A DNA stretch of 64,000 nt from an uncultured bacterium (lineage in GTDB: Bacteria; Abyssobacteria; SURF-5; CBDUXP01): assembly GCA_965371225.1 (NCBI GenBank), contig CBDUXP010000001.1, positions 146,111-210,110 on the forward strand. The letters are read 5' to 3'. Positions 9,843 to 60,703 of this stretch are shown here, piece after piece. The notes beneath the pieces are model-generated. The model saw only the letters and a program-made list of their open reading frames with translations. It was not told where the DNA came from and made no database searches. Every line of letters begins with the position of its first letter. The first letter of the stretch is position 1. Position numbers and translations under genes: made by a program.

Positions 9843-9848
9843 GCGCCG

Positions 9849-13407: not shown

Positions 13408-13452
13408 ACGTGCGCGACACGGGCGTCCGCGCAGACCCGGCGGGGGAAGACG

Positions 13453-44307: not shown

Positions 44308-44309
44308 GG

Positions 44310-45749
44310 TTACACGATCCGGAAGTGGTCTTTGAGCGTGCAGCGCCGCTCGCGGGTGAAGTGGACCGCGGTGGTCAGCCCCTCGCCCGTCGGACTCGCA
44401 ATGGTGAACGAGGTGTAACCCTCGCCGCGGTAACCGAGGCCGGACAGGCTCGACCCGTTTTTCACAAAGATGCTCGTATTGATGACCGCCGCCATCCGGC
44501 TGAGGCTGTCGATATTGCGCGAGTGCATCACCGCCGTGTGGCCGAACCCGTGCTCTGCCTCCACCGCCAGGTCGATGGCGGTATCCACGTCGGGCACGCG
44601 CACGAGCGGGATCAGCGGCATCATGAGTTCCATCTGCACCAGCGGATGCTCGAACGGCACTTCGGCCAGGATCATGCGCAGGTCGTGCCCCGCGTCGACC
44701 CCGATCTCCCGCAACAGGCAGCACGCGTCCCGGCCCACCCATGCGCGATTGATGGCACCGTGCGGGTTATCCGGCGACGGCGGCTCGGTCACCACCACTT
44801 GCGTGATGGCATCGATTTGCGCCTCGGTGAGTTCCACCGCGCTAATCGCTTTGAGTTCCGCCTTGAGGTCGTCAGCAATACTGTCGACCGCGAGGATCTC
44901 CTTTTCCGCCACGCAGATGATGTTGTTGTCCGTGGTGCAGCCTTCGATCAGAAACTGCGCGGCCGAGGGCAGGTCGGCCGTCTCGTCCACCACCGCGGGC
45001 GGGTTGCCCGGGCCGGCGGCGATGACCTTTTTGTCGCTGTTCATCGCCTCGCGCACCACGCCCGGCCCACCCGTCACCACGAGCAACCGAACGGCCGGGT
45101 GGCGCATGAGGGCTTGCGCGGTGGGGATCGTCGGTTCGGCCACCGAGGTCAACACGTTGGCCGGCCCGCCGGCGCGCTGAATAGCGCGGTTGAGAACATC
45201 GATGGTGAACAGGGACACGGCCGTCGCCGACGGGTGCGCGTTGAACACGACCGCGTTTCCGCCGGCGACCATCCCGATGGCGTTGCAGAGGATCGTCTCC
45301 GTGGGATTCGTGCAGGGCGTGATGGACCCGATGACGCCGTACGGGGCCCGCTCGGTCAGCATGAGGCCGTGGTCGCCGGTGCACGCCGCCGTCCGCAGGA
45401 TCTCCGGCCCCGGGGTCTTGTCGATGACGAGCCGGTTCTTGATCACCTTGTCCTCGGCGCGCCCGAGCCCCGATTCGTCCACCGCCATTTGGGCGATGGC
45501 GGGCACGATCTCATGCGCCGCGCGGCGCATCTCCGCGATGATGCGGGTCCGCCGCTCGAGCGACTGAGCGCGGAGGGCGGCCGCCGCGTCGTGCGCCGCC
45601 TGACAGGCGTCGTCCATCCGGGTAAACACCCCCTGATACCCGGCGGACGATTGCGCGGCGGCGACCGCCCCATTCCCCTCCGCGGTCAGGCGCGCGACCA
45701 CCTGCTCCACGACGGCAGTGATCTGGTCGCGGCTCAGCGTCGCGCGCAC
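44310..45749 (-). CDS. CoA-acylating aldehyde dehydrogenase (EutE/PduP-like) with N-terminal encapsulation-peptide-like helix
   Basis: ALDH superfamily with the EutE/PduP pattern (…IGSITPCTNPTETILCNAIGMVAGGNAVVF…, …CTTDNNIICVAEKE…). N-terminal DQITAVVEQVVARL helix plus a Gly/Ala/Ser linker before the catalytic domain. GTG start. RBS GAGG. Confidence 0.75.
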   Translation of the reverse strand: MRATLSRDQITAVVEQVVARLTAEGNGAVAAAQSSAGYQGVFTRMDDACQAAHDAAAALRAQSLERRTRIIAEMRRAAHEIVPAIAQMAVDESGLGRAEDKVIKNRLVIDKTPGPEILRTAACTGDHGLMLTERAPYGVIGSITPCTNPTETILCNAIGMVAGGNAVVFNAHPSATAVSLFTIDVLNRAIQRAGGPANVLTSVAEPTIPTAQALMRHPAVRLLVVTGGPGVVREAMNSDKKVIAAGPGNPPAVVDETADLPSAAQFLIEGCTTDNNIICVAEKEILAVDSIADDLKAELKAISAVELTEAQIDAITQVVVTEPPSPDNPHGAINRAWVGRDACCLLREIGVDAGHDLRMILAEVPFEHPLVQMELMMPLIPLVRVPDVDTAIDLAVEAEHGFGHTAVMHSRNIDSLSRMAAVINTSIFVKNGSSLSGLGYRGEGYTSFTIASPTGEGLTTAVHFTRERRCTLKDHFRIV

Positions 45750-45759
45750 CTCTCAGCCC

Positions 45760-46074
45760 TCACACTCCGGCGGGTTCCGCCGCCGGATATTTCTCGAACA
45801 CCACCTCGCCGTCCAGGTCCCACGTGTCCACGATGGCCATGATGACCGCATCCACGGGCCGCGCATCGGTGAGGTCCGTCTGCCGCGCGGCCGAGCCGGT
45901 GGCGTACAACACCACTTCCCCAACGCCGGCACCGACGGCATCGACCGCCACGTGATATCCGTCTGCGGCCTGCGCGCGCACATCCAGGTTGCGCACGAGC
46001 AGTAATTTCAAGTCGAGGAGCCGCTCATCCTTGCGCGTGGCAACGACGGTGCCCTCGACGCGCCCAAACAGCAC
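45760..46074 (-). CDS. BMC-P vertex protein (EutN/CcmL/PduN family)
   Basis: MLFGRVEGTVVATRKDERLLDLKLLLV…VGAGVGEVVLYATGSAARQ. Confidence 0.65.
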   Translation of the reverse strand: MLFGRVEGTVVATRKDERLLDLKLLLVRNLDVRAQAADGYHVAVDAVGAGVGEVVLYATGSAARQTDLTDARPVDAVIMAIVDTWDLDGEVVFEKYPAAEPAGV

Positions 46075-46095
46075 GGTCGAGTCCTCGCGCCCGGC

Positions 46096-46404
46096 CTACG
46101 CGGCCGGCAGCGCGGCGGTCGCCGTGGGCCCGCGCCCGAGCGGCAGCCGCTCGTCGACATTCTCGTGGGGCCGCGGGATCACGTGGACGCTCACCAGCTC
46201 GCCGACCTTTTCGGCCGCGCGGCTGCCCGCCTCGGTGGCCGCTTTCACGGCAGCCACGTCGCCCCGGACCACCGCGGTGACGTATCCCCCGCCGATTTTC
46301 TCGTAGCCCACGAGTTCGACCCGCGCGGCTTTCGCCATGGCGTCCGAGGCTTCGACCATACCGACGAAGCCGCGGGTTTCGATCATGCCCAATGCATCTG
46401 ACAT
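46096..46404 (-). CDS. BMC-H hexameric shell protein (PduA/EutM/CcmK-like)
   Basis: [56 protein letters not shown] is the canonical BMC domain. RBS GGAGGAG. Confidence 0.85.
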
Positions 46405-46583
46405 CTCATTACTCCTCCGCTGCAGGCGCCGCGGTTGTTAAGACCGGAATATGCAATGTGCGCCCGGTCGAGAAAAATCCCTGCGAGATCCTAGGGGCGA
46501 ATCGTGTATTCACCCATCGGGTGCGGGCGATCACAAGGATCGCCCCTACGGGAGAGAGGTGGGACATTGCACAGCCGTTCTCA

Positions 46584-47231
46584 CTAATTTGCGGCCGCTT
46601 CCCGGGCCTCTTCACCAAACGGAATACCTTCCACGCGTTCAAGCGCTGCGACGGCCGCTTCCGCCGCGGAGTCGATCTCCGCTTCGCCGCCGGACATGTG
46701 CAGCCGGCCGTACGCGCCATACGGGCGGACTTCCACCAGCTTCACGTCCGCCGCCTTCTCCGCCTCGTTCGCGGCGTACACCGCGTAGCCCGCGGGCTCC
46801 GTCTCCAGAATGAACAGGGATTCTCCCGGCAGGATCATCGACCCGTTGCGGTTCCGGTTGATGAGCTGGCATTGGTAGGGCTCGACGGCGCGGATGATCG
46901 TGTTCGAGACGATGTTCGGCTTCAGCCGGTCGGTCTCTTGCAGGCCGATGTGCCCGAGCACGGCGCGGCCCGCGCTGCGCACCTCGCCCTTGTCCATGTC
47001 GTGCACCTCGAGCAACCCGAACGCGCGTTCCACGATCTGAATGGCCGGCTGACAGGTGGTGGCCTTCAGCGCCACGTCGAGGACCCGATTGATCGCCAAG
47101 CCCGGGGCAATCTCCACGAACAGGGACCCCACGCCGGGGACCGGCAGGAAGCCCCGGGCCGTCGCCCCCATGAACGACGCCAACTGCGGCTGCAGGCTGT
47201 CCAGGAAGATGTAGGTGCGGAGCGTAGTCAT
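46584..47231 (-). CDS. BMC-T shell protein (tandem BMC domains), paralog of 42236..42874
   Basis: Same two-repeat architecture (…[23 protein letters not shown]…, …[55 protein letters not shown]…). Start taken at MTTLRTY (ATG 47231). Confidence 0.5.
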
Positions 47232-47241
47232 GCCGGGGGCC

Positions 47242-48120
47242 TCAATACTGTTTGCGCACAATCGCGTCTTCGATCTTCTTCTGGTTGCGGTACATGCGCT
47301 GGGGATTGCGCATGCCCAGCAGGACGAAGAGCGCGTCGATGATGGCGGCCTGGGCCAGCCGGCTCGCCAGCGCCTCGGCCCGGTACCGGGTTTCGCTGGA
47401 CGCCGTGACCAGCACCACGTCGCTCACCTTCGTGATGGGCGAGAGTGAGTTGTTGGTGATGGCGATCACCCGCGCCCCGGCCTGCGCCGCGACGCGAATC
47501 GTGTCGATGGGATCCGTGGTGCTGCCACTGTGCGACACGGCCAGGACCACGTCGCCCTTCCCCAGCAGGGCGGCCTCCATCATCTGCAGGTGGCTGTCCG
47601 TCTGGACGCGCACCGGCAGCCCGAGGCGCAGCAGCTTGTTATACGTGTCCGTGACCACGGGGCCCGAGGTGCCCACGCCAATGACGACGATGGTCCGGGC
47701 ACGGAACAGCAAATCCACCGCCCGCTCCACGGCGGCGGGATCTAGCACGTCCAGCGTGTCTTGAAGCGTCTGGATGTTCAGGCCGAACACCTTGCGCACC
47801 ACCGTGGACGTGTCGTCCGACGCTTTCACGTCTTCCAGCAGGCTCTGCAGGGGCGTCAGCCGGTCCCGCGCCAGCGCGATCTTGAACTCCTGGAAGCCCG
47901 AATAGCCCAGGGTGCGGCAGAAGCGCATGACGGTGGCCTCGCTAACGCTGCTGCCGGCCGCCACCTCGTTGATCGCCTGCCCCAGCAGCGCCTCCGGCTC
48001 GGCGGCCACATAGGCGCCGACTTTCCGCTCGGCCTTGGACAGACTGGCCTGGGCGCCGCGCACGCGGGCCAGGCAACCGCTGCCCAGGGGACCGGCGGTA
48101 CGCGCCTGGGTCTTAGCCAT
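47242..48120 (-). CDS. RpiR/MurR-family transcriptional regulator (HTH_6 + SIS domain)
   Basis: N-terminal HTH (…[54 protein letters not shown]…) and SIS domain (…[14 protein letters not shown]…[12 protein letters not shown]…). ATG 48120 with GAGGA 8 nt upstream. Confidence 0.7.
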
Positions 48121-48171
48121 GGGACCGTTCCTCCACAGCCCCACCCTAGCAAGCGTGGGCGGCCAGGTCAA

Positions 48172-48225: not shown

Positions 48226-48308
48226 AGCCCCCCTTTACCGGGCCCGCCCGGTAGGAGAGAATGGCCCCGAAAGCGCCCGCGCCCGTCCCAGGAGGCTCGC
48301 TCAGTGCC

Positions 48309-48632
48309 ATGATCGTGTCCATCATCCGGTTTCGCGTGTTCCCCGACAAAGAACCGATCCTGCCCATGGTGTGGGGCGGGCAAAAGGGCATGCTCAATGA
48401 CGTGCCCGGGTTCGTCCACGCCCAGCTCTTGAAGGACCTGGCCGAAGAGCACAGTTACATCATTCAGACCGTGTGGGAAACCGAGGATGCGCTGACGGCT
48501 TGGAAGACGGCGGCGCAGGAGCGCGGCGGCGAGCACATGCAGCGCATGCTCCGCGGCGAATCGGTCATGGTGGATCCGCCGTACGAGGTGCGGCACTTCG
48601 AGGTGCTGCTCCGGTCCGACGACCCGGACTAG
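48309..48632 (+). CDS. ABM (antibiotic biosynthesis monooxygenase/Dabb-like) domain protein
   Basis: About 107 aa with a ferredoxin-like ABM pattern (MIVSIIRFRVFPDKE…YIIQTVWETEDALTAWKTAAQ…). Start at ATG 48309 (the 48261 start adds an Ala/Pro-rich leader). Confidence 0.45.
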   Translation: MIVSIIRFRVFPDKEPILPMVWGGQKGMLNDVPGFVHAQLLKDLAEEHSYIIQTVWETEDALTAWKTAAQERGGEHMQRMLRGESVMVDPPYEVRHFEVLLRSDDPD

Positions 48633-48679: not shown

Positions 48680-48725
48680 TATACTCCGCGGCATGCGGCG
48701 CCCCCTGACGTTTCGGGAAATGCTG
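48680..48725 (+). repeat. 46-nt exact direct repeat (copy 1) spanning TATACT box, 7-nt spacer and first 11 codons of SGNH gene
   Basis: tatactccgcggcATGcggcgccccctgacgtttcgggaaatgctg is identical at 48680..48725 and 49513..49558. Confidence 0.8.
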
Positions 48726-49454
48726 CGCGTGTATCTCGCGTGCTTGACGGGGTTGGCGCTGATGCTGAATCGCGACCAGTTTCCGGCCTGGGCGCTCCCC
48801 GAACTCCGTGGCCTGGGACCCATCGTGCGTGAGGCCCACCCGTGGCTCGGGGAACAACGGTCTCGCTCTGCGTCGTTCCGGGGCTCCGGCGTTTCCCTCT
48901 TAGGCAAAGCCCATCTTGTGGTCGGCGATTCCCAAGCGTATTACTGGCCGTGGTCCGCGGACATCATCGGTATCCCTGGCATTATGGCCGACCAGATGCG
49001 TGAGCGGTTTCTTCAGGAGACAGCGAAGCGCCCGTTCCACTATGAACTGATCGTGCTGTGGATTGGTACGGCCCATTTCCAGCGCGGGTGCGACGTCCCC
49101 TCGTACGTTGACGGCGTAGCCGAGACGGTGGCGGCCGCGCGGCAATTGGGTGACCACGTGATCGTCCTGACGGGGATGCCCCATGAGGAATGGCAGGCGG
49201 CCCGGTATATCAAGCACAATCCGGACACGCCCGCACAGCGCGATACGCTTGCGCAATCGGCGGAGGCGGTTCGCGCGCTGCGGGCGCACCTGCCCGATGT
49301 GTTCGTCTTTGACATGGGGGCGTTCCGCGCCCCGTTAGCAGCGGCGGACCTCCTCGACACGTATTACGATGACGCCGTACATCTGTCGTCAACCGGCTGG
49401 GAGGCGTTGGGGGACGAGCTCGCCACCGCCGGCGTTTACGTAAGTCCCGACTAG
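48693..49454 (+). CDS. SGNH/GDSL-like hydrolase (copy 1 of tandem pair)
   Basis: Block-I-like LVVGDSQ, N-terminal TM/signal (LRVYLACLTGLALML), and a C-terminal DxxH-like region (DDAVHLSSTGWE). Confidence 0.5.
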   Translation: MRRPLTFREMLRVYLACLTGLALMLNRDQFPAWALPELRGLGPIVREAHPWLGEQRSRSASFRGSGVSLLGKAHLVVGDSQAYYWPWSADIIGIPGIMADQMRERFLQETAKRPFHYELIVLWIGTAHFQRGCDVPSYVDGVAETVAAARQLGDHVIVLTGMPHEEWQAARYIKHNPDTPAQRDTLAQSAEAVRALRAHLPDVFVFDMGAFRAPLAAADLLDTYYDDAVHLSSTGWEALGDELATAGVYVSPD

Positions 49455-49512
49455 CCGCGTTCCCCGCCGGGAAGCTGCGTAGTAGCGGCCACCGTGGTAC
49501 CGGCGTGCCCGG

Positions 49513-49558
49513 TATACTCCGCGGCATGCGGCGCCCCCTGACGTTTCGGGAAATGCTG
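49513..49558 (+). repeat. 46-nt exact direct repeat (copy 2)
   Basis: Identical to 48680..48725. Confidence 0.8.
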
Positions 49559-50296
49559 GGGGTGTATCTTGTGTGCTTGGCGGGCTTGGCGGTCACGCTC
49601 AACCGCAACCTGCTTCCCACGTGGGTGCGGCCGGAGTTCTACGCCCTGGAGGAGACCCTCAATGCGGCCCACCCGTGGCTCGCCATCCCGCGCCCGCACC
49701 GCTCGCCGTTCGTGTCCACGCGCGTCGCCATCACGGGGCACTCCTGTCTCGTCGTCGGCGATTCGCAGGCGATCAAGTGGCCCTGGTGCGCGGACGTGCT
49801 GGGCTTTGCCGGCGGCAACGCCATGCAGATCTTCCGGCGGATGCGCGTGGAGTTGGAGCACCGCCAACCGCAGTACGCCCAGATCGTGGTCATGGTCGGC
49901 ACGGCCCACTTTCAGGGCGGCGCCAACGTGCGCACGTACGTCGACGGTGTGGCCAAGATGGTCGCCTTGGGCCGGGAGAGCGGTGCGGAGGTTTTCGTGG
50001 TGACTCCGATGCCGTATGACGAACGCCAGATCGAGCGCTTCCTGGCCGCGCATCCGCACATCCAGGGGAAAGGGATGCGGCGCGACACCCTCGCCCACAC
50101 GACGGAAGCTGCCGCGGCCTTGCGCCTGCGCCTGCCCGACGTGGTGATGTTCGACTTAGGACAATTTCACGCCATGCTGACGGGGAGCGGCCGGCGGGAG
50201 GCCTTGTACGTGGATGGGCTCCATCTCACCCCCGAGGGCTGGTCGCTCTTGGCCGATGAGCTCGCCGCGGCCGGGATTCAAGTGACGGACTTCTAA
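49526..50296 (+). CDS. SGNH/GDSL-like hydrolase (copy 2 of tandem pair)
   Basis: Paralog of 48693..49454 (LVVGDSQ, …DGLHLTPEGW…). The first 11 codons and 13 nt of leader are identical to copy 1. Confidence 0.5.
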   Translation: MRRPLTFREMLGVYLVCLAGLAVTLNRNLLPTWVRPEFYALEETLNAAHPWLAIPRPHRSPFVSTRVAITGHSCLVVGDSQAIKWPWCADVLGFAGGNAMQIFRRMRVELEHRQPQYAQIVVMVGTAHFQGGANVRTYVDGVAKMVALGRESGAEVFVVTPMPYDERQIERFLAAHPHIQGKGMRRDTLAHTTEAAAALRLRLPDVVMFDLGQFHAMLTGSGRREALYVDGLHLTPEGWSLLADELAAAGIQVTDF

Positions 50297-50353: not shown

Positions 50354-51172
50354 TCAGCGTGCAGTTGGCGGCGTTCCCAACGTGCGGAGAAAACGGAGGT
50401 GGCCGGGCGGTGCCTCGCCCGCCAAGGCGGCTTCGTAGCGCTCCAGGTCTTGGACCGTGTCCACTTCGCACCAGTCGCCGGAAATCGGCACGGCGGACGG
50501 CGCCACACCCGCCGCGATCATGCCCTGGAGCAGGTCCGTCATGTACGCGGCGCGGAGGGACGGCACCCCGGCGAACGCCTCCGCCCCCGCGGCCTCGCGC
50601 TGCGCCGCCTCGTCGTACACTCGGCGCAGCGAGGCCAGGCCGTCCGTGGTGAAGCGCATGAGGCCGATGTATTGCCCCTGGATCTCGGCGAGGCTGCCGG
50701 GGCGCTGCCCGATTTCCGTGAGGTGGCCGTCGGCGTCCACCCGCAAGCTCTCCGCATCCTCCAGCGGATCGTCATGCCGGAAGCGCCACAGCGTCTCCCA
50801 CGCGCGGTCCACCGCCACCGCGCAGGCCGCCTCCGCCGCCAGGACGCGGCGCACCACCTGGCCGCTATACACGATGTCCGTATACGCGACCAGGGTGGGT
50901 TCGGTGAACTCGTGCGCCGCGCAGAAGAGCGAGTGCACCATGTTCGTGGTGGCGTACTCCGGATTGTGAACCCGCCGGGTACCGTAGGCGGCCAGGGCCT
51001 CGGCCCGGTAGCCGGTGACTACCACGATGTCGTCCACGCCCGCCGCGTGTAGTACCTCGAGTTGCCACGCGAGCAACGGGCGCCCCGCCAGCGGCACGAG
51101 GCACTTCGGCCGGTCGTCCGTGTGGGGTCGCAGGCGCGTGCCCTGCCCCGCGGCCAGCAGGATCGCCTTCAC
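50354..51172 (-). CDS. Nucleotidyltransferase (LicC/CTP:phospho-substrate cytidylyltransferase-like)
   Basis: VKAILLAAGQGTRLRPHTDDRPKCLVPLAGRPLL is the GxGTRL nucleotide-binding signature. C-terminal …ISGDWCEVDTVQDLERYE… GTG start overlaps the upstream stop (GTGA). Confidence 0.65.
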   Translation of the reverse strand: MKAILLAAGQGTRLRPHTDDRPKCLVPLAGRPLLAWQLEVLHAAGVDDIVVVTGYRAEALAAYGTRRVHNPEYATTNMVHSLFCAAHEFTEPTLVAYTDIVYSGQVVRRVLAAEAACAVAVDRAWETLWRFRHDDPLEDAESLRVDADGHLTEIGQRPGSLAEIQGQYIGLMRFTTDGLASLRRVYDEAAQREAAGAEAFAGVPSLRAAYMTDLLQGMIAAGVAPSAVPISGDWCEVDTVQDLERYEAALAGEAPPGHLRFLRTLGTPPTAR

Positions 51173-51873
51173 GATGCGTGCGCGCGCAGGGCATCGAGCA
51201 ACCGCTGCCAGAATGCGCCGGCATGGATGCGCGCCGCGCCGTCCGTGGGCATGGGACGTTCCGGATGCCACATGATGCCAGCGATGGGGGCGCTGCGGTG
51301 CACGCAGGCTTCCACGCTCCCGTCCGGCGCGAACGCGGTGGGCTCCAGGTCCACGGCAATGTCTTCCGGCCGGATCCAGCGGTCATGATAGGAATTGACG
51401 GACACGGTTGGCTCGGGCCACACCCCCGCCAGGGCCGCGCCGGTGAACTGCACGTCGTGGCACGTGCCCCGGTGCGCCTGCACGTCCGGCACCGGCGCAT
51501 CCGCGCCGCCGAACGCCTGGTTCAGGAACTGGAAGCCGCGACACACGCCGACCACGGGGATGCCCGCCTCCCGCGCCGCGCGCAGGTAGGCTAGTTCCGC
51601 ATAGTCGCGCCGCGCCCAGGGATCCTCGGACTCCTGCACGGGAGTGTCCGGACCGATGGGCGCGCGGAGGTCATCGCCACCGGTCAGCACGAGCAGATCG
51701 AGGTTGCTGCGGTGCAGGCGGTCGGCGGCCGCAAGCGGCGCGTTGGGCAGGAGCACGGCCTCGGCCCCGCACGCGTCGAGCGTCCGGGACCAGTCGTGGC
51801 TGATCGCATCCCGCGGGTCGCTGTAGTCCGCGCTGGCGACATCCATCACCCGCATGGTCAGCCCAATCCGCAT
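51169..51873 (-). CDS. Peptidase C26 / class-I glutamine-amidotransferase-like hydrolase (γ-glutamyl hydrolase type)
   Basis: Catalytic Cys context GVCRGFQFLNQAFGG and His context MWHPERP. ATG 51873 overlaps the upstream stop (TGATG). Only the 3' 705 nt of six-frame ORF 51169..52527 is used. Confidence 0.6.
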   Translation of the reverse strand: MRIGLTMRVMDVASADYSDPRDAISHDWSRTLDACGAEAVLLPNAPLAAADRLHRSNLDLLVLTGGDDLRAPIGPDTPVQESEDPWARRDYAELAYLRAAREAGIPVVGVCRGFQFLNQAFGGADAPVPDVQAHRGTCHDVQFTGAALAGVWPEPTVSVNSYHDRWIRPEDIAVDLEPTAFAPDGSVEACVHRSAPIAGIMWHPERPMPTDGAARIHAGAFWQRLLDALRAHAS

Positions 51874-54800
51874 CACACGCCCGCCACGGTGCGATTCCCG
51901 CAATCCAGTTCGATGGCGGACGCGCGGCGCAGGTCGGCATAGAGCGCCGCCCCGCACCCGATGGCCGCGGGGAGCCCGAACTCCGCCGACCGGATCGCCA
52001 TGTGGGAATTGGCGCCCCCGTACTGCGTAATCAGGCCGGCGATGTCCCGGGTGAAAATCCAGTCGAAGCCCGGGTCCGCAAAGGAGAGCAACACGATCTT
52101 TCCGGACAGGTCGCCCGCTGCCGCGTCCCCTTCGAGCACTGCGGGCGGCGCCAACACGCGGCGCGTGGTGATGAAATTGGGCCGACTGTGAATCTGTTCG
52201 ACGATTTCCAGATCCCGCGCGGCGGTAATCAGGCCGGGCATGATCAGCATCTGCTCCAGCCGGTACTGCTCCCGCGCCGCGGCGATCTCGGCGCGCGCCG
52301 CGTCCACCCGGGCGGGCGACGCCGCTTCCCGGCTCAGCCGGAGCAGGGTGCCGTAGGACAGGAACGACAGATCGTCCCGCGTCAGCCCCACCGTCTCGCC
52401 CCAGCGGGCGATGCACTCGAGGGCGGCGCTGAGGTTCACGGTGAAGCGAAACTTCGCCGCTTCGCGCGCGGCCACCGTCGCGGCGACGAACCGGAGCACC
52501 GCATCCGCGGAGGCGCACAGCCCGCACGCTTCCAGGGCCTGCGTCATCGCACCGCGTTCACCTTCGGAGAATTCGCCCAGCAGGTCCCCCGCGTCCGCGG
52601 GCGCCTGTGCCGGCGCCTGGGCGGTGGGCGACGCCGCGGCAGGGAAATACCGGTCGGGCGCCGCATCGTAGCGGGGGGAGAGGATGTCGTAGGTGCCGGG
52701 GCGGAGGTGCCCGTACATTTCGAGAAACGAGTCAAGGCTCGTGCGACTTTCACGCACGCCGGTCAGCGCAGCCATGAGGTCGGACGCCACCGTTGGAATG
52801 TGTTGGTGCACGCTATCCAGTTGCCGCGGTGTGAGGAGCCCTTCCGCCGCCAGCCCCCGCAACAGGGCGGACCCGACGAACGCCATGCGCGCCAGCATGC
52901 TGAACGGCAGGGTGCCGCACGTGCGCGCGTCTTCCAGCATCCGCTGCATCGCACTCAGCGGCACGGTCTCGCCCAGTGCGTGGTGCTGCGCCCGGCGCGC
53001 CGTCAACCGGTCGACCTGCTCCAGCAGGCCGGCGACGGTCGGCCCTTCACCCTGCAACATCCGATTGGTCAGCGGCAGGAGCGCGGCGCGGAGCGCGGCA
53101 ATGTCGCCGTCGACCACCCCGTGTTCGCGGAGCCGACCGGCGTGGCGGTCGAAGTCCGGGGTGGTGCACGTGACGGCGATTTCGAACTCCAATTTGTCGT
53201 GGGCCGCCGGTTCGGCCTCGAGCGCGTCCAGGTACGCCGTCACGATGCGGTCCCGCACGTCGGGCGCGAGGGCCGCCGGGGTCAAGCTGTTCAGGCTGTT
53301 GCGCACGTCGATGTACGGGTGTCCGCCCACGAGCAACATCAGGGGCTCGCCTTCGGGGTGGAAGTAGCCCAGGGCCGCGCGCGCGTCCCGCCACGTGTGA
53401 TTCGTGATCAGGTCGGCGTACAGCGTGTGCGCCAACGGGCGGGGATGCGCGCCGAGCATCTCGGCCGGATTCCAGTCCGGCATGTCGCCCAGAATCGTGC
53501 GGTCGCCCCCCAGCGGCGGGCGGGGGCCGAGCTGCGCCTCCACGAACGCGCGATTGGCCTCCACCAGCGGCGTGACGTCGTTCAGGTAGTAGCGCGACAC
53601 CACTTCGGTGATCGCCAGCGGGCGCGCCTGGAAGAGCACGACCTCGCCCGACGCGCGCACGGCGTACTCCACGTCGACCGTTTCGCTTCCGGTGCGCGCT
53701 TCGACCTCCTGGACCGCGGCGACCACACGCGCCAGCTCCGGTGCGCCCGGGGATTCGCGCGTGTGCTTCCACAGGGCGACGGTTTCCAGGTCGGTGGCGC
53801 TGCCGCTGGTGACGCCGTCCGTGCGGCTGGACCGCTCGTGGGTGAGCACGTAGTAGGGGCCGCCCGTGCGCAGGTCGCAGGACACCGCCACCCCGCTCAG
53901 CACTGCATCGTCCAGCCAGGGCTGCACCAGCACGCGATGATCCGCGCGGGTGTCGCCGTAGCTGTCCAGCACCGCGTCCACTGCCGCGGCCACGGCGGGC
54001 TGATCCACCACCGCCACACCGAGCACGGAGTGGTACACCCCGGCGTTCGAACTATCGAGCGCGTCCTCGTCGGGCGCCGAGCTGCGCACGACGATCTGCC
54101 CCTGGGGAAACGCCTCGCGGATGCGCGCGTACGCCGCCGCCGGCTCCTCCGCCCACTCCCGGGCATCCACTGTCACCTGATCGAGGACGCGCGCCGTCTG
54201 CAAGACCGGCTGGAGGCGCTCGAGAGTCTCCGCCTTGGTGCCGAACACGAACCGGGTCAGGTCCTGCGGCGAGTCCAGGTCCGCCCATGCGTTGCCGATG
54301 TCGACCGCGTGCACTCGGTCGCCGCGGTCGATCAACGCTTGCAACAGGTCGATGATGGTCAGGTCCGCCGTGCGGTCCGCGCCGGCCACCCCGAGGGCCG
54401 CACCGCCGCCCAGGTCGGCTAGTTGGCGCACGGCCGCGGTCTGGGGCGGGGCGAGGTACAGGAGACCGGTGAACTCTCCGTGCGCTTCGGCGCCGGGCAG
54501 GTCGCGGGCGATGCGCCGCACGGTGCCGTCGGGGGCCACCTCCACCTTCTCGGCCTTGCGTTGGAGCGCGTCGCTGCGATCGAGGTACCGCACCTGCCAC
54601 TGCCGGTCGATCGCGACGACGAGGCCGTGCGCCGCCGCATCCAGCACCACGCCGACGGCTTCCGGCCGGTAGACCGTATCGCAGTAAGTCACGAGCACGG
54701 GCCCGTCCACGTCCGCGGTTCCCACGAGGAGCGAGCCCACCATGCCCGACGTGGCCCAGTGGGGATTAAACCGGAATTGCACGGCGGGATACCGCGCGCT

Positions 54801-54977
54801 CAACACATCGATGTCCTTCCCGCCGACGACCACCACGTCCTCGATGCCGTTGCGCCGTAGCGCGTCGAGAAGCCACGGCAGCGTCGCGTCCATGCGGCCG
54901 TGGAGGGAGGACGCCGCGCGCAGGTAAGGGGGCTGCACGGATTCCAAACCGCGCGCGGCCAACAGGACGGCTCGCAC
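51873..54977 (-). CDS. PEP-synthase/PPDK-like ATP-dependent kinase (PPDK_N ATP-grasp-like domain + PEP-utilising phosphohistidine domain) with N-terminal degenerate nucleotidyltransferase-like domain
   Basis: Middle region VVRSSAPDEDALDSSNAGVYHSV (PPDK_N hallmark). C-terminus …GGANSHMAIRSAEFGLPAAIGCG (phospho-His mobile domain). N-terminal ~250 aa resemble an NTP-transferase fold (MRAVLLAARGLES…) but lack GxGTRL. Confidence 0.6.
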   Translation of the reverse strand: MRAVLLAARGLESVQPPYLRAASSLHGRMDATLPWLLDALRRNGIEDVVVVGGKDIDVLSARYPAVQFRFNPHWATSGMVGSLLVGTADVDGPVLVTYCDTVYRPEAVGVVLDAAAHGLVVAIDRQWQVRYLDRSDALQRKAEKVEVAPDGTVRRIARDLPGAEAHGEFTGLLYLAPPQTAAVRQLADLGGGAALGVAGADRTADLTIIDLLQALIDRGDRVHAVDIGNAWADLDSPQDLTRFVFGTKAETLERLQPVLQTARVLDQVTVDAREWAEEPAAAYARIREAFPQGQIVVRSSAPDEDALDSSNAGVYHSVLGVAVVDQPAVAAAVDAVLDSYGDTRADHRVLVQPWLDDAVLSGVAVSCDLRTGGPYYVLTHERSSRTDGVTSGSATDLETVALWKHTRESPGAPELARVVAAVQEVEARTGSETVDVEYAVRASGEVVLFQARPLAITEVVSRYYLNDVTPLVEANRAFVEAQLGPRPPLGGDRTILGDMPDWNPAEMLGAHPRPLAHTLYADLITNHTWRDARAALGYFHPEGEPLMLLVGGHPYIDVRNSLNSLTPAALAPDVRDRIVTAYLDALEAEPAAHDKLEFEIAVTCTTPDFDRHAGRLREHGVVDGDIAALRAALLPLTNRMLQGEGPTVAGLLEQVDRLTARRAQHHALGETVPLSAMQRMLEDARTCGTLPFSMLARMAFVGSALLRGLAAEGLLTPRQLDSVHQHIPTVASDLMAALTGVRESRTSLDSFLEMYGHLRPGTYDILSPRYDAAPDRYFPAAASPTAQAPAQAPADAGDLLGEFSEGERGAMTQALEACGLCASADAVLRFVAATVAAREAAKFRFTVNLSAALECIARWGETVGLTRDDLSFLSYGTLLRLSREAASPARVDAARAEIAAAREQYRLEQMLIMPGLITAARDLEIVEQIHSRPNFITTRRVLAPPAVLEGDAAAGDLSGKIVLLSFADPGFDWIFTRDIAGLITQYGGANSHMAIRSAEFGLPAAIGCGAALYADLRRASAIELDCGNRTVAGV

Positions 54978-54999: not shown

Positions 55000-55812
55000 C
55001 TAGATGCTCGCCGCCGGCCCCGGGGGCAGCGCTGCGACGATGAAGGTGCGATTCCGGTCGAGAAAGGTGCCATAGTCGAGGACCGTTTCTTCCTGCAGGG
55101 TGAACAGGTCCGCAATGATATCCCGGACCACGGGCAACTGCGCCCCTTCGTGCTCGGGCGGATGGGATTCGAACAGGAACAGGCCGCCGGGTTCCAGCAG
55201 CGCGCGACATTTGCCGAAGTACTCTTCGAGCGGTTGACGCGTATTGCCGTCATAGGTCGAGTGATTCGCGAATGACAGGACCGCATCGACCGGACACGGC
55301 GGCCGGAACTCCTCGAACGCGCTCACGTGGAACTCCACATTGGCGGCGCCGAGGTAGGCGGCGCCCGCCCGCGCGATGTCGATAAGGTGGGGGTTCACGT
55401 CGAAGCCGATGACGCGGTCGGCCACATCGGCCAGCGCCAAGGTCAGGAACCCGGTGTTGCACCCAATCTCCAACACGGTGCGCCCGGCAAGTCGCTCGCG
55501 CAGGCCCATCATCCGCACGCGCTCATCCGTATCCCGGAGACCGGAAAAGCCGAGCGCGCGCAAGCCCTGGTACAGGTAGCCCTCTCCGTAGTCGTAGCTG
55601 TCCCACTCCCGCGCCGCCTGCAGCAGGGCCGCGTTGCAGTGGCGGTGCAATTCCCGAAGGCGTTCATCCTTCATAAGCAACGTGTAATTGCGCAGGCGGT
55701 TCGACAGAGCCAGGCGCCGGCGCTTTCCCCGCGCGCGGAGCATATGCCAGGTAAACACGAGGGGCGCCACGCCGTGGTACCGGTCGTAATACTTCAGGTA
55801 CGCCTCGCGCAT
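55000..55812 (-). CDS. Class I SAM-dependent methyltransferase
   Basis: Motif I VLEIGCNTGFLTLALA, motif II region VIGFDVNP. Confidence 0.65.
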   Translation of the reverse strand: MREAYLKYYDRYHGVAPLVFTWHMLRARGKRRRLALSNRLRNYTLLMKDERLRELHRHCNAALLQAAREWDSYDYGEGYLYQGLRALGFSGLRDTDERVRMMGLRERLAGRTVLEIGCNTGFLTLALADVADRVIGFDVNPHLIDIARAGAAYLGAANVEFHVSAFEEFRPPCPVDAVLSFANHSTYDGNTRQPLEEYFGKCRALLEPGGLFLFESHPPEHEGAQLPVVRDIIADLFTLQEETVLDYGTFLDRNRTFIVAALPPGPAASI

Positions 55813-55816
55813 AGCG

Positions 55817-56701
55817 CTACTCAGGCCCGCCGGTGAACACGCGCGCGAGCGCCGCGCCGCGCACCGCCTCGTGCATGAAGTGATAGGTCACGCCGGCCTC
55901 GCGATCCTGCGGGGTGGCGGGCCAATCGGCGAGGTCCGGCGCCGCCGCCACCTGCCGGGCCAGCATCTCCGCCCGGAGCACGGGATCGTAGAACGCGAAC
56001 AGCGCCCGATACAGGGTCGGATCGTCCGGCCGCGGCAGCCCGGACAGGTCGAACGCCAGGGATTCCAGCTCGGCCGTGCACACCACGTCCCCCGCATCCA
56101 GTTCGGGAACCATAAAGAACACACTCATACCCGGTCGCCCGCGCACCATGGTAGACCACAACAGGCCGTCCGCGCCGCGCACGTGCGGCAGGTAGCCGGG
56201 ATGCAGGTGGAGGAACCGGAGCCCGGGCGTCGCGAGCAGGGGCGCGGGCAGCAGGCCGCCCCCCGTGTAGAGCACCACCGGCTGCCCCAAGGCCGTCAGC
56301 GCCGGGCCCAACGATTCTGCCCGGTAATCCGCCGCGAGAACTCGCCGCACCTCGTCCGCGAAATCCTCGTAACGCACCGGCCCCCGCAGCGCGGATACTA
56401 CGGCCGCGCTCTCGGGATAGGCCTCCCCAATGGCGCGCTCCATCCGCTCCACCAAGCCCGCGTGAGTCTGCCGAATGCGCCGGGGCCAGAACCAGTGTGC
56501 AAGCGATTGCACGCGCTCGGCGTAGGCGAGCCGGAGCCGGCCGGGGAGCCAGCGGCCGACCGGTTTGCCGGTGGCGGGATGCGTGGGCGCAACCAGGAGC
56601 AGTATGCCGGCAGGCCGGTAGCCGGCGGCACGCAGCCGCAGCAGGTACGCGGCAACCTGCGGCCCTTCGTAGGCCAGCACCGTAAGCGGGAGGGTGTTCA
56701 T
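55817..56701 (-). CDS. Formyltransferase-family (Fmt/PurN N-terminal domain-like) protein
   Basis: …LRFLHLHPGYLPHVRG… resembles the HxSLLPxxRG formyl-transferase motif. ATG 56701 overlaps the upstream stop (ATGA). The upstream ~85 codons of the six-frame ORF are rejected. Confidence 0.4.
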   Translation of the reverse strand: MNTLPLTVLAYEGPQVAAYLLRLRAAGYRPAGILLLVAPTHPATGKPVGRWLPGRLRLAYAERVQSLAHWFWPRRIRQTHAGLVERMERAIGEAYPESAAVVSALRGPVRYEDFADEVRRVLAADYRAESLGPALTALGQPVVLYTGGGLLPAPLLATPGLRFLHLHPGYLPHVRGADGLLWSTMVRGRPGMSVFFMVPELDAGDVVCTAELESLAFDLSGLPRPDDPTLYRALFAFYDPVLRAEMLARQVAAAPDLADWPATPQDREAGVTYHFMHEAVRGAALARVFTGGPE

Positions 56702-57150
56702 CCCGCGGCAATCTCCCCGAGCACCGCATCCGCCTCCGCGCGCAACTCCGCCAGCAGGGGCACGTCTGGCTGCGTAGCAAGGAGGTCCAGCGCCTGGAAC
56801 GCTCCGTTGACCCACTTCAGGGCGGGACCGCGGCGGGCGGGCTCCGCATCGGTCGCCGCACGGCCGTACGCCAGCAGCACGGCGACGCCCAACGCCAACG
56901 CCGCATCGGGAAGCGGCGCCGCGTCGGGGTCTTTGCGCCAATCCGCATCGTAAGCCGTCCACACGCGCTTCGCGATGGCGATCTTGCGGCAGAGGGCGTG
57001 CAGCCAGCCCGCGCGCATCCCGTCGGGCGGGTCCCCGGCGGATTCCGCGAGGTGCCGCAACAGCCCCACCATTTCCTGCTGGGGAATGGGGCCCGGCGCG
57101 GACGCGGGGGGCGCCGCGACCAGCGCGCGGTGCAGCAGGGGGGCAACCAT
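56698..57150 (-). CDS. Hypothetical protein
   Basis: In-operon ORF with no recognisable family. Start chosen at MVAPLLHRAL to avoid a 74-nt overlap with the upstream gene, but it is uncertain. Confidence 0.3.
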   Translation of the reverse strand: MVAPLLHRALVAAPPASAPGPIPQQEMVGLLRHLAESAGDPPDGMRAGWLHALCRKIAIAKRVWTAYDADWRKDPDAAPLPDAALALGVAVLLAYGRAATDAEPARRGPALKWVNGAFQALDLLATQPDVPLLAELRAEADAVLGEIAAG

Positions 57151-57154
57151 CGCG

Positions 57155-58318
57155 TTATCCGGCCGCGGCGCGGCGACCGGCTGCGGCCACGATGTAGTCC
57201 GCGGCGGCGCGACCGCTTTGGCCAACATTAAAGAGCCACCGGTCCCGGGCCGCGCGAATTTCCGGAACCCGCTGCGCCGTGGTCTCCCGCAGTTCGCGGA
57301 CGTGCCTGGCGATGTGCGGAATCTCCGCGGGCGAGATGACGGTGCCGATGGCGGACCGGATCAGGACTTCGAACGGCTCGCACGGGATGGCGTCCGCATT
57401 CGGGTTGTTCACTTTGCGCGCCACGTCGATAAACAGCACGGGGCGTTCGAGCCCGAAGGCGAATTCCGCGGCCACCCCGGACCAGTCACTCACCATCACG
57501 TGGGCCGCAAAGAGCGACTCGGCCGACGCGACGTCCGTCTCCAGCACCACCTGCGGATGATCGCCGAACGCCTCGCGCAGCTTCGCAATCACCTCAGGCC
57601 GCTGGAGCGCGGTCCGCGGATGGGGCCGAATCGTGACGTGGCAGCCGGCGTCCAGCAGCGCGGCGACCGTGTCGTGGCCGTGGGCTTCCAGGATCGCCTC
57701 CGGCCCCCACGTGGGTGCCAGCAACACCCGGGGGGGGCCGTCGTGGGCGGGCGGCGGGCGGCGGGCCCCCTCGCGCATAAGCGAATCCAACCGGCTGTAT
57801 CCGTGCTCGGGCAGCGCGCGGGGCGGCCGGCCATGCGCCTGTTCCAGGGCGCGGGCTTCGGCCACGTGGTGCGGCCCCACGCACAGGATCGCGTCAAAGT
57901 AGTCGAATGCCCGTTCGCGGTAGATCGTGTGCATGCTGACGATGGAGTGGTGGAGGTACACGTAGTGGACCGGATAGTAGCGCGACCGCTTGACGTGAAA
58001 GACTTCCAGGTCGGGCGTGGTGAGGACCATCACATCGCTGCGCAGGGTCCAGAACGCATACGTGCGGACGATACCCCTGCCCACGTAGCAGACGTGCAGG
58101 TGCTCCTCGGTCCGGCGTAGCCCGGGATCGGCCGGGTCCGAGGTCAAGTAGGCGACCGGGCGCTGGTGCTCCACGCGCAGGGCGGTGACCACCGGCTCCA
58201 GGTGGACCCAGGCGGCCGCGTCCTCGGCGTAGAACACGATGGAGCGGGCCGCAGGATCGAGGGCCAGGAACCGCCGCAGCCCGGCGCACGCCCGGGCGAA
58301 GTCTCGGAAACCATGCAT
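57155..58318 (-). CDS. CDP-glycerol glycerophosphotransferase family protein (TagB/TagF-like, Glyphos_transf)
   Basis: C-terminal …FAAHVMVSDWSGVAAEFAFGLERPVLFID… and preceding …LLAPTWGPE… are typical of the TagF-like catalytic domain. First gene of the minus-strand operon. Confidence 0.55.
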   Translation of the reverse strand: MHGFRDFARACAGLRRFLALDPAARSIVFYAEDAAAWVHLEPVVTALRVEHQRPVAYLTSDPADPGLRRTEEHLHVCYVGRGIVRTYAFWTLRSDVMVLTTPDLEVFHVKRSRYYPVHYVYLHHSIVSMHTIYRERAFDYFDAILCVGPHHVAEARALEQAHGRPPRALPEHGYSRLDSLMREGARRPPPAHDGPPRVLLAPTWGPEAILEAHGHDTVAALLDAGCHVTIRPHPRTALQRPEVIAKLREAFGDHPQVVLETDVASAESLFAAHVMVSDWSGVAAEFAFGLERPVLFIDVARKVNNPNADAIPCEPFEVLIRSAIGTVISPAEIPHIARHVRELRETTAQRVPEIRAARDRWLFNVGQSGRAAADYIVAAAGRRAAAG

Positions 58319-58452
58319 CACAACTGTGGTCGGCACTCTGCGCCGCGGGTTGCAACGTGGATCAGCCGGTCATTAGACTATCTCACCTGTGGTGCCGCGC
58401 GCGGTGGTAGGGGGGATGACCGCGCTCGGGGCGATCCCAGGAAGGGGCGGGG

Positions 58453-58735: not shown

Positions 58736-60703
58736 GTGGTGCCGCCGGCTTCGCCCGTGAATCCCAAGCCGCGCGTCCCCCTTGACCTGCTGCTGGTCGG
58801 CGGTGCGCTCCTCGCGGTGCATCTGGGGGTGCGCAACCATACGCTGACCCCGCTGAACGGCGGCATCGAGGCGCTCGACGGCGGCTACCTGATGGAGGCG
58901 CTGGCCCGGGTGGCCGGCGGCGAGCGCGCGTATACCCCGGTGGTCTTCCATTACGGACCGTATTGGGTGGGCTATTACGTGGGGATGATGAAGCTCTTCG
59001 GGGTCTCGGTCGGCGGCGTGCGCTGGGGGGTGGCGTTGCTCGCCTGGCTGCGCAGCGTCACGACGTACGCGCTCACCGCCCGCTTGGCCGGCCGCTGGTG
59101 GGGGTTGGTCGCGGTGGCGGTGACCATCGTGTCCCCAAACGTCCTGTTGGGTGCGCCGTACGGGAGCTACACGTCCGGAAGCGTGCTGCTCGTGTTCGCG
59201 GGCGCGGTGCTCTGGGCGCTGGCAGCGGAGGGATCGGCCCGGCGGTGGTTACTGGTCGGCCTGCTGATTGGCGTCATGTTCGGTGCACGGTGGTCCAGTG
59301 CGTTCATTGCGCTGGCGGCGACCGGCATCGTGGGGGGGGCCACGGGCCTCCTGCACCCGCCCGTGCGGCGGGGCCACTTGGTGGGCACGGTGGTGATCCC
59401 CGGCCTGTTGTTGGTCAGCGTGGGCCTGCTGGTCTGGCCCTATGCGCGCGCGTCGTGGATCGCCTTCGGTCCGCCGGCAGTGGGCGCCGCGGTGTTGGCC
59501 GGGGCGGAGAGCTGGCGGCGCCGGGGCACCGGGCCGGCCACCTGGCGCGAATGGCGCGCGGCCCCCGCCTGGTGCGCGGCCGGCATCGGGACGGCGACCC
59601 TGGTCTGGCTCGTGCCCATGACCCTGGCGGGGGATGTGGCCACCCGGGTGCATGACATGTTCCTGCGCTACGCGGCATCCGTCCAAGTGGGCCGCTGGTA
59701 TGCGGTGGAGCAACCCCCCGGGCTCGAGGCGCTCGGGCTCGTGACGCACACCCCCCCCGCACCGCTCATGCTTGCCGGCTGGGGGCTGCTCCTGTTCGGC
59801 TGGGTCGTGCACGCGCGCCGGGGGGATGGAGCGCGGTGGCGCCTGACCTGTCTGGCGTGGGCCGCCGCAGGCGTGATGCTCACCGTGTCCATGGTGCGGG
59901 CACACGCGTTCCAGTCCGCCCGGCTCGGGGATCTCCTGTGGGCGGAACTGCTGGGGCCCGTGTACCTGGTCTGGTGCCTGCACCACGCGTTCCGCGCCGG
60001 CGACGCGCGGCCTCCCTGGCTGGTGCCCCTGGCCTGCCTGGCCGGGGTGACGTTCCTGGACGGCGCGGCCGACGTGAATTGGGTGCATGTGGGTGCGGCG
60101 ACGGGAGTGGCCATCGTGTTTGGCGTCGTCGCGGCCCATCAGGCGTGGCTCGCGGGGCGGACGGCGACGCGGCTCTTGGGCCCGGCCCTGGCCGTGGGGG
60201 TGGCCCCGCTGATCGCCGCGCAATTCCTGCTGGGCGCCGGCCTGTGGTGGACGCTGCCGGGCGATTCGTGGCGGTTTACGCGCCGCGACCTGGCGTGGGT
60301 GGATGTTCCCCGCGGGCAGGTGTGGGAGGACGTCGGCGTGGCGCGCGAGATCCGGGCAAACGTACTGTTCTTGCAGGCCGCCTTGCCGCCGGATGAACCC
60401 TGCTTCTCCTTTCCGGATGCGCTCTACCTCTTTCTCGCCGACCGGCGCGGCACGGCGGACGTGACCTATTTCTGGCCGGGCTATTCGGCGCCCCACATCG
60501 ATGGACACTATGCCTCCTACCTGCGCACCGATCCGCCGCGACTGGTCGTGACCCGCTACAGCCCGCTTGACGTGTTCGGGGGGCCGTTGTACCTGGCCCG
60601 CGGGTTCCCCAAGATTGTCGACACGCTCGATGACGAGTTCCGTGTCGTCCAAGAAATCGGCATCCTGCGCTACTACGCCCCACGCCGGCGCGGCGGCCGG
60701 TAG
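58736..60703 (+). CDS. Polytopic membrane protein, putative GT-C-like glycosyltransferase (paralog A)
   Basis: 655 aa, about 14 TM helices, first-loop acidic motif (GGIEALDGGYLME), C-terminal ~130-aa soluble domain. Confidence 0.4.
   Translation: MVPPASPVNPKPRVPLDLLLVGGALLAVHLGVRNHTLTPLNGGIEALDGGYLMEALARVAGGERAYTPVVFHYGPYWVGYYVGMMKLFGVSVGGVRWGVALLAWLRSVTTYALTARLAGRWWGLVAVAVTIVSPNVLLGAPYGSYTSGSVLLVFAGAVLWALAAEGSARRWLLVGLLIGVMFGARWSSAFIALAATGIVGGATGLLHPPVRRGHLVGTVVIPGLLLVSVGLLVWPYARASWIAFGPPAVGAAVLAGAESWRRRGTGPATWREWRAAPAWCAAGIGTATLVWLVPMTLAGDVATRVHDMFLRYAASVQVGRWYAVEQPPGLEALGLVTHTPPAPLMLAGWGLLLFGWVVHARRGDGARWRLTCLAWAAAGVMLTVSMVRAHAFQSARLGDLLWAELLGPVYLVWCLHHAFRAGDARPPWLVPLACLAGVTFLDGAADVNWVHVGAATGVAIVFGVVAAHQAWLAGRTATRLLGPALAVGVAPLIAAQFLLGAGLWWTLPGDSWRFTRRDLAWVDVPRGQVWEDVGVAREIRANVLFLQAALPPDEPCFSFPDALYLFLADRRGTADVTYFWPGYSAPHIDGHYASYLRTDPPRLVVTRYSPLDVFGGPLYLARGFPKIVDTLDDEFRVVQEIGILRYYAPRRRGGR

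Follow-up and report, generated by a model that had tools for sequence, protein, structure and literature searches.

We describe here a fused gene in a 64,000-nucleotide stretch of DNA (hereafter the window) from an uncultured bacterium of the Abyssobacteria (GenBank assembly GCA_965371225.1, contig CBDUXP010000001.1, positions 146,111 to 210,110). The gene joins a degenerate nucleotidyltransferase (NT)-fold domain, which we call the N-domain, to a kinase module. Judged by its sequence, this module is an L-glutamine kinase of the Cj1418 family and not a generic phosphoenolpyruvate (PEP) synthase. The N-domain has lost the arginine and the lysine that its characterised relatives require for activity, and comparison with those relatives suggests, as its most likely role, that of a non-catalytic module for ligand binding, docking or regulation. 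The fusion architecture is uncharacterised yet widespread, not rare, and it represents a known enzyme family and not a new type of system. The features of the fused gene are as follows.

54249..54977, minus strand: N-terminal pseudo-cytidylyltransferase domain (aa 1-243 of the fused protein)
54894..54962, minus strand: degenerate glycine-rich pyrophosphate (PPi)-binding loop region (aa 6-28, LAARGLESVQPPYLRAASSLHGR; placed by motif-anchored alignment)
51873..54248, minus strand: L-glutamine kinase module (aa 244-1034 plus stop codon), with an ATP-grasp domain, a helical substrate domain and a C-terminal swivelling His domain
53940..54140, minus strand: PPDK_N (ATP-binding) motif region including RSSAPDEDA (aa 280-346; Pfam PF01326, E 3.8e-10)
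51897..52103, minus strand: phosphohistidine swivelling domain (aa 959-1027; Pfam PF00391, PEP-utilizers, E 2.8e-11)

The kinase module belongs to the L-glutamine kinase family

Residues 239-1032 of the fused protein match NCBIfam model NF004508 (PRK05849) at 786.4 bits, against a cutoff of 501, and cover model positions 5-786 of 789. In contrast, the NCBIfam models for PEP synthase, rifampin phosphotransferase and PigC/RedH reach 25-46 bits against cutoffs of 600-1350, with the best PEP synthase model at 45.8 bits against a cutoff of 883. An earlier note on this DNA, made from the sequence alone, had called this part a PEP-synthase-like kinase. The PPDK_N and phosphohistidine domains behind that description are present, but the family is that of L-glutamine kinase. 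Across 58 homologues, R298, S299, S300, E304 and D305 are invariant, and the GGANSH992M motif is at least 90% conserved; its His992, encoded at 52002..52004, is the predicted catalytic residue. Homologues named 'glutamine kinase' by JGI share 36-41% identity across the kinase part. The boundary between the kinase and the N-domain is fixed by the standalone homologues, which begin at FGTKAETLERL, corresponding to residue 245 of the fused protein.

The top Foldseek matches of the full-length model are the rifampin phosphotransferases 5hv1 and 5fbs (E 4e-20), which have the same three-domain order. The kinase module thus resembles rifampin phosphotransferase and PEP synthase in fold, domain order and the phosphohistidine swivelling domain. 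It differs from them in scoring 32-46 bits, far under their cutoffs of 880-1000, and in having no PEP/pyruvate-binding C-terminal domain: a Pfam scan of the fused protein found none, nor any third Pfam domain.

The fused gene is a single open reading frame

The gene is one open reading frame (ORF; 51873..54977, minus strand) of 1034 aa, with a GTG start and no internal stop codon. Its third-position GC content (GC3) is 0.82-0.97 in one frame across the entire ORF, in a window of ~69% GC, and this uniformly high value in a single frame therefore gives no sign of a frameshift. The earlier note had read the gene as a true fusion and had named a frameshift or a sequencing error as what would speak against it. 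We looked for these through GC3 and through homologous architectures and saw no sign of either: the frame is uninterrupted, GC3 is even, and the same domain order occurs in 56 of 80 related species loci. The three motifs quoted in that note were all located in the fused protein, (V/M)RAVLLAARGLES at aa 1-13, RSSAPDEDALDSSNAGVYHSV at aa 298-318 and GGANSHMAIRSAEFGLPAAIG at aa 987-1007, and the structure prediction that it called for gave a confident full-length AlphaFold model (predicted local distance difference test, pLDDT, 91; predicted template modelling score, pTM, 0.89). The sole stretch of the model with a pLDDT below 50 is aa 10-23, the degenerate glycine-rich loop. The comparative data have already refuted the explanation that the fusion is an artefact in which a frameshift, sequencing error or misassembly merged two genes. 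We give it practically no weight, as the coding signal is unbroken in a single frame, the same architecture is shared by 56 species loci and by some 80 of the top 150 database representatives, and the full-length model is confident.

A database protein (P0001) is 100% identical to the fused protein and has 1006 aa, with its start at M29. The GTG at 54977 is the better start, because homologues conserve the 28 residues ahead of M29, which include beta-strand 1, and because the AlphaFold model folds residues 2-7 as this strand. The start of P0001 (affecting the region 54894..54977) removes the conserved first beta-strand and the loop of the N-domain. At least one database copy is shortened at the N-terminus in the current record, where these proteins are labelled 'PEP/pyruvate-binding domain-containing protein' or 'choline kinase'.

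The N-domain keeps the cytidylyltransferase fold and has lost its catalytic signature

Taken alone, the N-terminal 256 aa match PF12804 (NTP_transf_3, MobA-like; E 1.6e-7, above the gathering score), and the fold of the N-domain matches PntC, IPCT and LicC (PDB 6pd1, 4jd0 and 1jyk). Its last helix runs almost straight into the first kinase helix, with a linker of ~3 residues. The loop of the window N-domain reads L-A-A-R-G-L-E-S, in which Gly1 is replaced by R, Gly2 by L and the canonical Arg by S. No PK motif is present within 32 residues of the anchor. The PF12804 match and these substitutions bear out the earlier description of an NT fold without the GxGTR(L) signature. PntC is the closest structural relative, and its pyrophosphate site consists of the GXG(T/S)RX4-8PK motif; the R15A and K25A variants of PntC have <10% activity left, and the equivalent K-to-A change abolishes activity in FrbH and YgbP (PMC6697681). 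PntC, LicC and IPCT carry this motif with the required Arg15 and Lys25, whereas the window N-domain has S and no PK.

The loss extends beyond the window copy. In a joint alignment of 52 N-domains with 71 orthologues of NT2, the canonical cytidylyltransferase of the same operon, residues of the glycine loop were counted at positions anchored on the invariant Ala:

Second Gly of GxG: NT2 71/71; N-domains 10/52
Arg of GxG(T/S)R: NT2 71/71; N-domains 18/52 (35%)
Lys of PK: NT2 70/71; N-domains 2/52
Asn of TNM: NT2 70/71; N-domains 0/52
Asp of ExD: NT2 70/71; N-domains 17/52 (Asn in 28)
Gly2, Arg and PK together: N-domains 0/52

Both groups have the motifs YxD, DxxWxx(W/Y)xxR...AE, GxxxG and WxE..DL, and the two cross-match at 40-140 bits. 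A neighbour-joining tree separates the 52 N-domains from the 71 NT2 sequences in one clean split with zero mixing, and the mean within-group distance is 0.72 for N-domains and 0.58 for NT2. About 20 columns of the N-domain are invariant or near-invariant, including the pocket-type residues D100, D124, W127, R130, R134, E143 and W231. The window N-domain has D100, D233 and D235, the metal-binding acidic residues of YxD and WxE/D. Thus the N-domain is like a Cj1416-type CTP:phosphoglutamine cytidylyltransferase in its fold and in its YxD, lid, GxxxG and WxE..DL motifs. It is unlike that enzyme in lacking the invariant GxGTR Arg, the PK Lys and TNM, in forming a separate and faster-evolving clade, and in being always fused to the kinase. 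Alignment of the conserved residues of the NT fold, whose mapping the earlier note had proposed with an intact active site as the outcome that would contradict it, showed that the Arg and the PK Lys are missing and the acidic metal residues are present. Of the claim that the domain may be a non-catalytic docking or channelling module, the non-catalytic part is consistent with the comparative data, with Arg and Lys lost clade-wide and NT2 present in 35/35 fused loci (see below); docking is one of two roles that we propose.

There is also a third group, NT3, of ~250-aa standalone cytidylyltransferases with an intact GAGRGxRL...PKC signature (P0116, encoded at 340..1095 of locus L081, P0128, P0146, P0156, P0188, P0195 and P0211). 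NT3 scores ~200-230 bits on both the N-domain and the NT2 profile, sits between these two clades and occurs in contexts unrelated to the pathway; in L081 its gene adjoins a major facilitator superfamily transporter and a B12-binding radical SAM enzyme, not a glutamine kinase. Because NT3 has the lid motif, this motif is a subfamily trait and no proof of phospho-glutamine binding. The presence of the motif in NT3 and the position of NT3 between the clades also weaken a candidate explanation that we had considered, in which the N-domain is a plain NT2 duplicate that keeps the phospho-glutamine pocket.

The few loci with a fused kinase and also a gene like adenosine 5'-phosphosulfate (APS) kinase (L004, L045 from Haloferax elongans, L001, L003, L012 and L056) tend to have N-domains whose loop is more canonical, reading LAAGRGIRRL in L045. 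These N-domains may be intermediate forms.

The fusion is widespread in bacteria and archaea

A protein search gave 75 relatives with three architectures: a standalone form of ~780 aa, a fusion to an APS-kinase-like domain of ~970 aa, and the NT-like fusion of ~1010-1048 aa. In the APS-kinase-like fusions (for example P0040, P0046 and P0053) the same kinase family has an alternative, pathway-related N-terminal partner. Unlike the N-domain, this partner has a P-loop kinase fold (PF01583, Cj1415-like) with an intact Walker motif and is presumably catalytic.

A locus scan with one genome per species and a full-length alignment query gave at least 579 relatives, of which the best 80 loci were analysed. 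Since these resemble the query most closely, fractions of co-occurrence taken from them are biased to this subtype and are not population estimates. By a profile test, the NT-like domain is present in 56 of these 80 loci, in bacteria and archaea; the earlier note had proposed a search for the same domain order in other genomes, and it was found. The hosts of fused loci are Bacteroidota, Acidobacteriota, Chloroflexota, Actinomycetota, Planctomycetota, Pseudomonadota (including Legionella and Marinobacter), bacteria of the candidate phyla radiation, and archaea such as Haloferax elongans. In a tree of the kinase domain, the best split groups 55 fused with 9 unfused sequences. An exhaustive database search with the N-domain profile gave 875 representatives at E<=1e-30. 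About 80 of the best 150 have a length of 950-1120 aa and carry the domain N-terminally, and the shorter representatives that were checked are mostly truncated fusions or members of a distinct standalone group.

Literature searches found the Campylobacter pathway and no description or characterised protein with an NT-like::glutamine kinase fusion, in agreement with the remark of the earlier note that the architecture was not known from characterised proteins. In a Borg cluster described in the literature, the Cj1416-1418-like genes are separate.

The operon resembles the Campylobacter phosphoramidate cluster

The fused gene is part of an operon that contains the following other genes.

57155..58336, minus strand: TagF-like protein (CDP-glycerol glycerophosphotransferase family), the first gene of the operon; PF04464 at 22.9 bits against a cutoff of 22.1
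56698..57228, minus strand: small conserved ORF X176, with an alternative start at 57150; GC3 0.86
55817..56701, minus strand: formyltransferase-fold protein FT; PF00551, E 8e-7; PDB matches to Fmt, PseJ and FDH
55000..55812, minus strand: S-adenosylmethionine (SAM)-dependent methyltransferase, directly upstream of the fused gene; matches to Methyltransf_25/31/11
51169..51873, minus strand: GATase/Peptidase_C26-like hydrolase, a candidate Cj1417-like gamma-glutamyl-CDP-amidate hydrolase; PF07722, E 6e-28
50354..51172, minus strand: canonical cytidylyltransferase NT2 (Cj1416-like), with LAAGQGTRL...PKCL; PF12804, E 2.7e-21; best PDB match LicC (1jyk), E 6e-18

The ATG of the hydrolase gene overlaps the TGA of the fused gene in the junction TGATG, and the GTG of NT2 overlaps the stop codon of the hydrolase gene. 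NT2 is thus the separate canonical cytidylyltransferase that the earlier note had placed two genes downstream, after the GATase-like gene.

Cj1418 of the Campylobacter jejuni O-methyl phosphoramidate (MeOPN) pathway, which from the work of the Raushel laboratory we take to be the glutamine kinase of the Cj1415-Cj1418 set, is like the fused kinase in its NF004508 family, in its order of ATP-grasp, helical and swivelling-His domains, and in its Cj1417-like and then Cj1416-like partners. The fused protein is unlike Cj1418 in its extra 243-aa N-terminal NT-fold domain. Together, Cj1415-Cj1418 convert Gln, ATP and CTP to CDP-phosphoramidate 3'-phosphate (PMC11800397). The gene order kinase, GATase, NT2 mirrors Cj1418-1417-1416 and supports the pathway assignment. 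The overlapping start and stop codons at both gene junctions, the independent Pfam-labelled contexts and the polysaccharide locus of the window (both described below) count for it as well. Unlike the Campylobacter MeOPN core, the 64-kb window has no Cj1415-like cytidine diphosphoramidate 3'-kinase: a profile of this APS-kinase-fold enzyme, built from 10 fusion proteins, gave zero matches at E<=10 in any window ORF of at least 60 aa. Taken jointly, the assignment of the kinase and its pathway context are well supported, and we hold them with high confidence.

The gene content of related loci was compared in those with at least 6 kb on both sides of the kinase (well-flanked loci; 35 fused, 14 unfused):

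GATase-like gene: fused 35/35; unfused 13/14
NT2 orthologue: fused 35/35; unfused 13/14
APS-kinase-like (Cj1415-like) gene: fused 7/35; unfused 12/14 (Fisher p 3e-5)
TagF-like gene: fused 17/35; unfused 0/14 (Fisher p 8e-4)
Formyltransferase-fold gene (at least 60 bits): fused 12/35; unfused 0/14

The order kinase, GATase, NT2 holds in all 35 fused and in 13 of the 14 unfused loci, and two Pfam-labelled metagenomic or genomic contexts independently show the same neighbours within sugar/capsule loci. A further candidate explanation, that the fused domain replaces the Cj1416-type transferase, is ruled out by the canonical NT2 in every well-flanked fused locus.

The TagF-like protein has homologues in 29 fused loci, with scores of up to 351 bits, and in none of the unfused loci; in L083 the gene has an independent Pfam label. 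The association with TagF-like genes, together with the scarcity of Cj1415-like genes, suggests a pathway variant in which a TagF-type phosphotransferase uses cytidine diphosphoramidate directly. FtaD is a TagF-family enzyme that moves non-glycerol phospho-groups from CDP donors onto sugars. The window TagF-like protein belongs to the same family, with a PF04464 match barely above the cutoff, and its donor would be a CDP-amidate.

A proposed pathway and the role of the N-domain

From family membership and gene context we infer the following chemistry. The fused kinase would be the first enzyme of a phosphoramidate (P-N) surface-glycan decoration pathway, with ATP phosphorylating His992 of the swivelling domain, by analogy with the His phosphorylation of Cj1418-type kinases. 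The downstream genes, predicted to be translationally coupled, would continue the pathway: NT2 would make CDP-L-glutamine, and the GATase-like hydrolase would free glutamate from it to give cytidine diphosphoramidate, both roles being predicted from family and context. The TagF-like enzyme may then transfer the phosphoramidate to a sugar hydroxyl, and the methyltransferase may subsequently O-methylate it. The N-domain (aa 1-243) is a diverged relative of NT2 in which the fold, the acidic residues and the lid are still in place. It no longer has the Arg and the Lys, which serve to hold the triphosphate and to stabilise the transition state. It could act as a feedback sensor of a cytidine-linked or phospho-glutamine intermediate, or as a dock for the active transferase that allows the hand-off of labile N-phospho-glutamine.

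GMPPA with GMPPB, eIF2B gamma/epsilon and the large subunits of ADP-glucose pyrophosphorylase provide cases of impaired NT-fold paralogues that regulate or scaffold an active partner. The N-domain may be comparable to such GMPPA-type paralogues, with a damaged glycine-rich loop alongside an intact enzyme. GMPPA-type paralogues are separate subunits, however, whereas the N-domain is fused to the first kinase of the pathway.

On balance, and by a modest preference, we favour as a whole the reading of a glutamine kinase that opens a P-N glycan-decoration pathway and carries the N-domain as a non-catalytic ligand-binding module. The pattern is that of a pseudoenzyme, because the fold, the metal site and the lid are kept while the Arg and Lys are lost, the domain evolves faster than NT2, an intact paralogue is always co-encoded, and the three-residue linker is rigid. 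Several observations weigh against this reading. D100 is kept in 49/52 N-domains and the acidic residue of WxE in 48/52, and the lid motif DxxWxx(Y/W)xxR...AE is retained; these residues form the metal/substrate site in active relatives, which makes variant or residual catalysis possible. A family-specific loop, LGAG[RK]P, also gives most N-domains a conserved basic residue, and the canonical Arg is still there in 35% of them. The occurrence of the lid motif in NT3 and the bias of the 80 loci towards this subtype, both described above, count on the same side, as does the hydrolase, whose best NCBIfam match, NF045546 (gamma-glutamyl-CDP-amidate hydrolase), reaches 66 bits and is below the cutoff of 250. 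If the N-domain were still an active nucleotidyltransferase with a non-canonical phosphate loop, the protein would be a bifunctional kinase/transferase that makes CDP-L-glutamine in cis or acts on a second phospho-substrate. We consider this unlikely, and equally so its corollary that the standalone NT2 is redundant or serves another substrate. The retained D100, lid motif and WxE/D would fit such an enzyme, as would the conservation of the family loop LGAG[RK]Pxx(R)G itself, which is hence not in random decay, and the fact that other glutamine kinase fusions join true pathway enzymes such as the APS-kinase-like domain. However, no relative tested can do without the Arg and Lys of GXG(T/S)RX4-8PK (PMC6697681), and these residues are missing in the window copy and in most of the clade. 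A bifunctional enzyme should sometimes make NT2 dispensable, yet a canonical NT2 accompanies all 35 well-flanked fused loci, and confidence in the model is low only in the loop.

We regard it as improbable that the N-domain is a relic that serves the folding, solubility or oligomerisation of the kinase only, with no ligand and no pathway-specific role. Its faster evolution relative to NT2 (0.72 against 0.58), the disappearance of the catalytic signature and the existence of unfused, presumably functional kinases are what a relic would predict. A pure scaffold, however, would hardly need ~20 invariant or near-invariant columns that include pocket-type residues, the domain is kept across very distant phyla including archaea, and its presence tracks the type of cluster (TagF-like genes in 17/35 against 0/14 loci, APS-kinase-like genes in 7/35 against 12/14). 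There is also little to recommend the explanation that the kinase has a substrate other than L-glutamine and that the operon makes a different phospho-decoration, so that the analogy with Cj1418 misleads. The named glutamine kinases are just 36-41% identical, the operon is without a Cj1415-like kinase, and it adds formyltransferase-fold and TagF-like proteins that lie outside the described Campylobacter core, all of which such a kinase could account for. But the equivalog model NF004508 is exceeded by a wide margin, and a Cj1417-like hydrolase and a Cj1416-like transferase in Campylobacter order are sensible only for a glutamine-derived CDP-amidate. Within the favoured reading of a non-catalytic ligand-binding N-domain, we offer as a tentative and rather doubtful extension that the domain is a built-in allosteric sensor or docking site, much as GMPPA is for GMPPB, at the ATP-expensive first step of a second P-N branch, in which TagF-like enzymes of dozens of bacterial and archaeal lineages would use cytidine diphosphoramidate directly, without 3'-phosphorylation.

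P-N glycan decoration has been worked out biochemically in Campylobacter alone, whereas genes for the glutamine-kinase route occur in at least several hundred species. Among the relatives of the window gene, the dominant form has the N-terminal pseudo-cytidylyltransferase domain, and the genes that accompany this fused form are those for TagF-like, formyltransferase-fold and methyltransferase proteins, in place of the Cj1415-like 3'-kinase. If the N-domain regulates or channels, it would be a clear case of a pseudoenzyme derived from an enzyme of the pathway and joined to the entry point of that pathway, and a variant pathway would be defined whose donor is the CDP-amidate rather than its 3'-phosphate. 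If the sensor or docking role and the second branch are both true, phosphoramidate-decorated glycans would be far more widespread than the Campylobacter case suggests.

Other genes of the operon and the surrounding window

A PDB sequence search with the TagF-like protein gave zero matches. X176 has zero Pfam or NCBIfam matches, and 11 related loci have a homologue of it between the TagF-like gene and that for FT. The likely start of FT is M88 of a long ORF, where it overlaps the stop codon of X176 as ATGA. FT carries the motifs HLHPGYLPHVRGAD and ELDAGDVV and has homologues in L010, L016, L025, L035, L061 and L064. It was seen solely in fused-kinase loci, and in several genomes it is fused to a SAM methyltransferase; conversely, homologues of the SAM methyltransferase occur in related loci and are often fused to an FT-like protein.

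Divergent from the phosphoramidate operon are two tandem genes on the plus strand (58736..60703 and 60709..62682) for paralogous 655-aa membrane proteins, which match each other at ~1030 bits and have a weak match to PMT_2 (GT-C fold). They may be acceptor-glycan enzymes. Two tandem paralogous genes for SGNH/GDSL hydrolase-like proteins (48693..49454 and 49505..50296, plus strand) converge on the end of the operon. An NCBIfam search of the TagF-like, X176, GT-C-like and SGNH genes gave zero matches.

The first 25 kb of the window contain a Wzx/Wzy-type polysaccharide locus (149..14829 and 21716..24195), with genes for an initiating sugar transferase, Wzz, a GNAT protein, a Wzy_C-type polymerase or ligase, three GT4 glycosyltransferases and a flippase. 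The glycan to be modified may come from this locus. An ABM monooxygenase-like ORF is located at 48261..48632. Finally, genes for a class II aldolase, an aldehyde dehydrogenase, an ORF with a single bacterial microcompartment (BMC) shell domain and an RpiR/SIS regulator are grouped at 42876..48171, which may be a small microcompartment-related catabolic locus.

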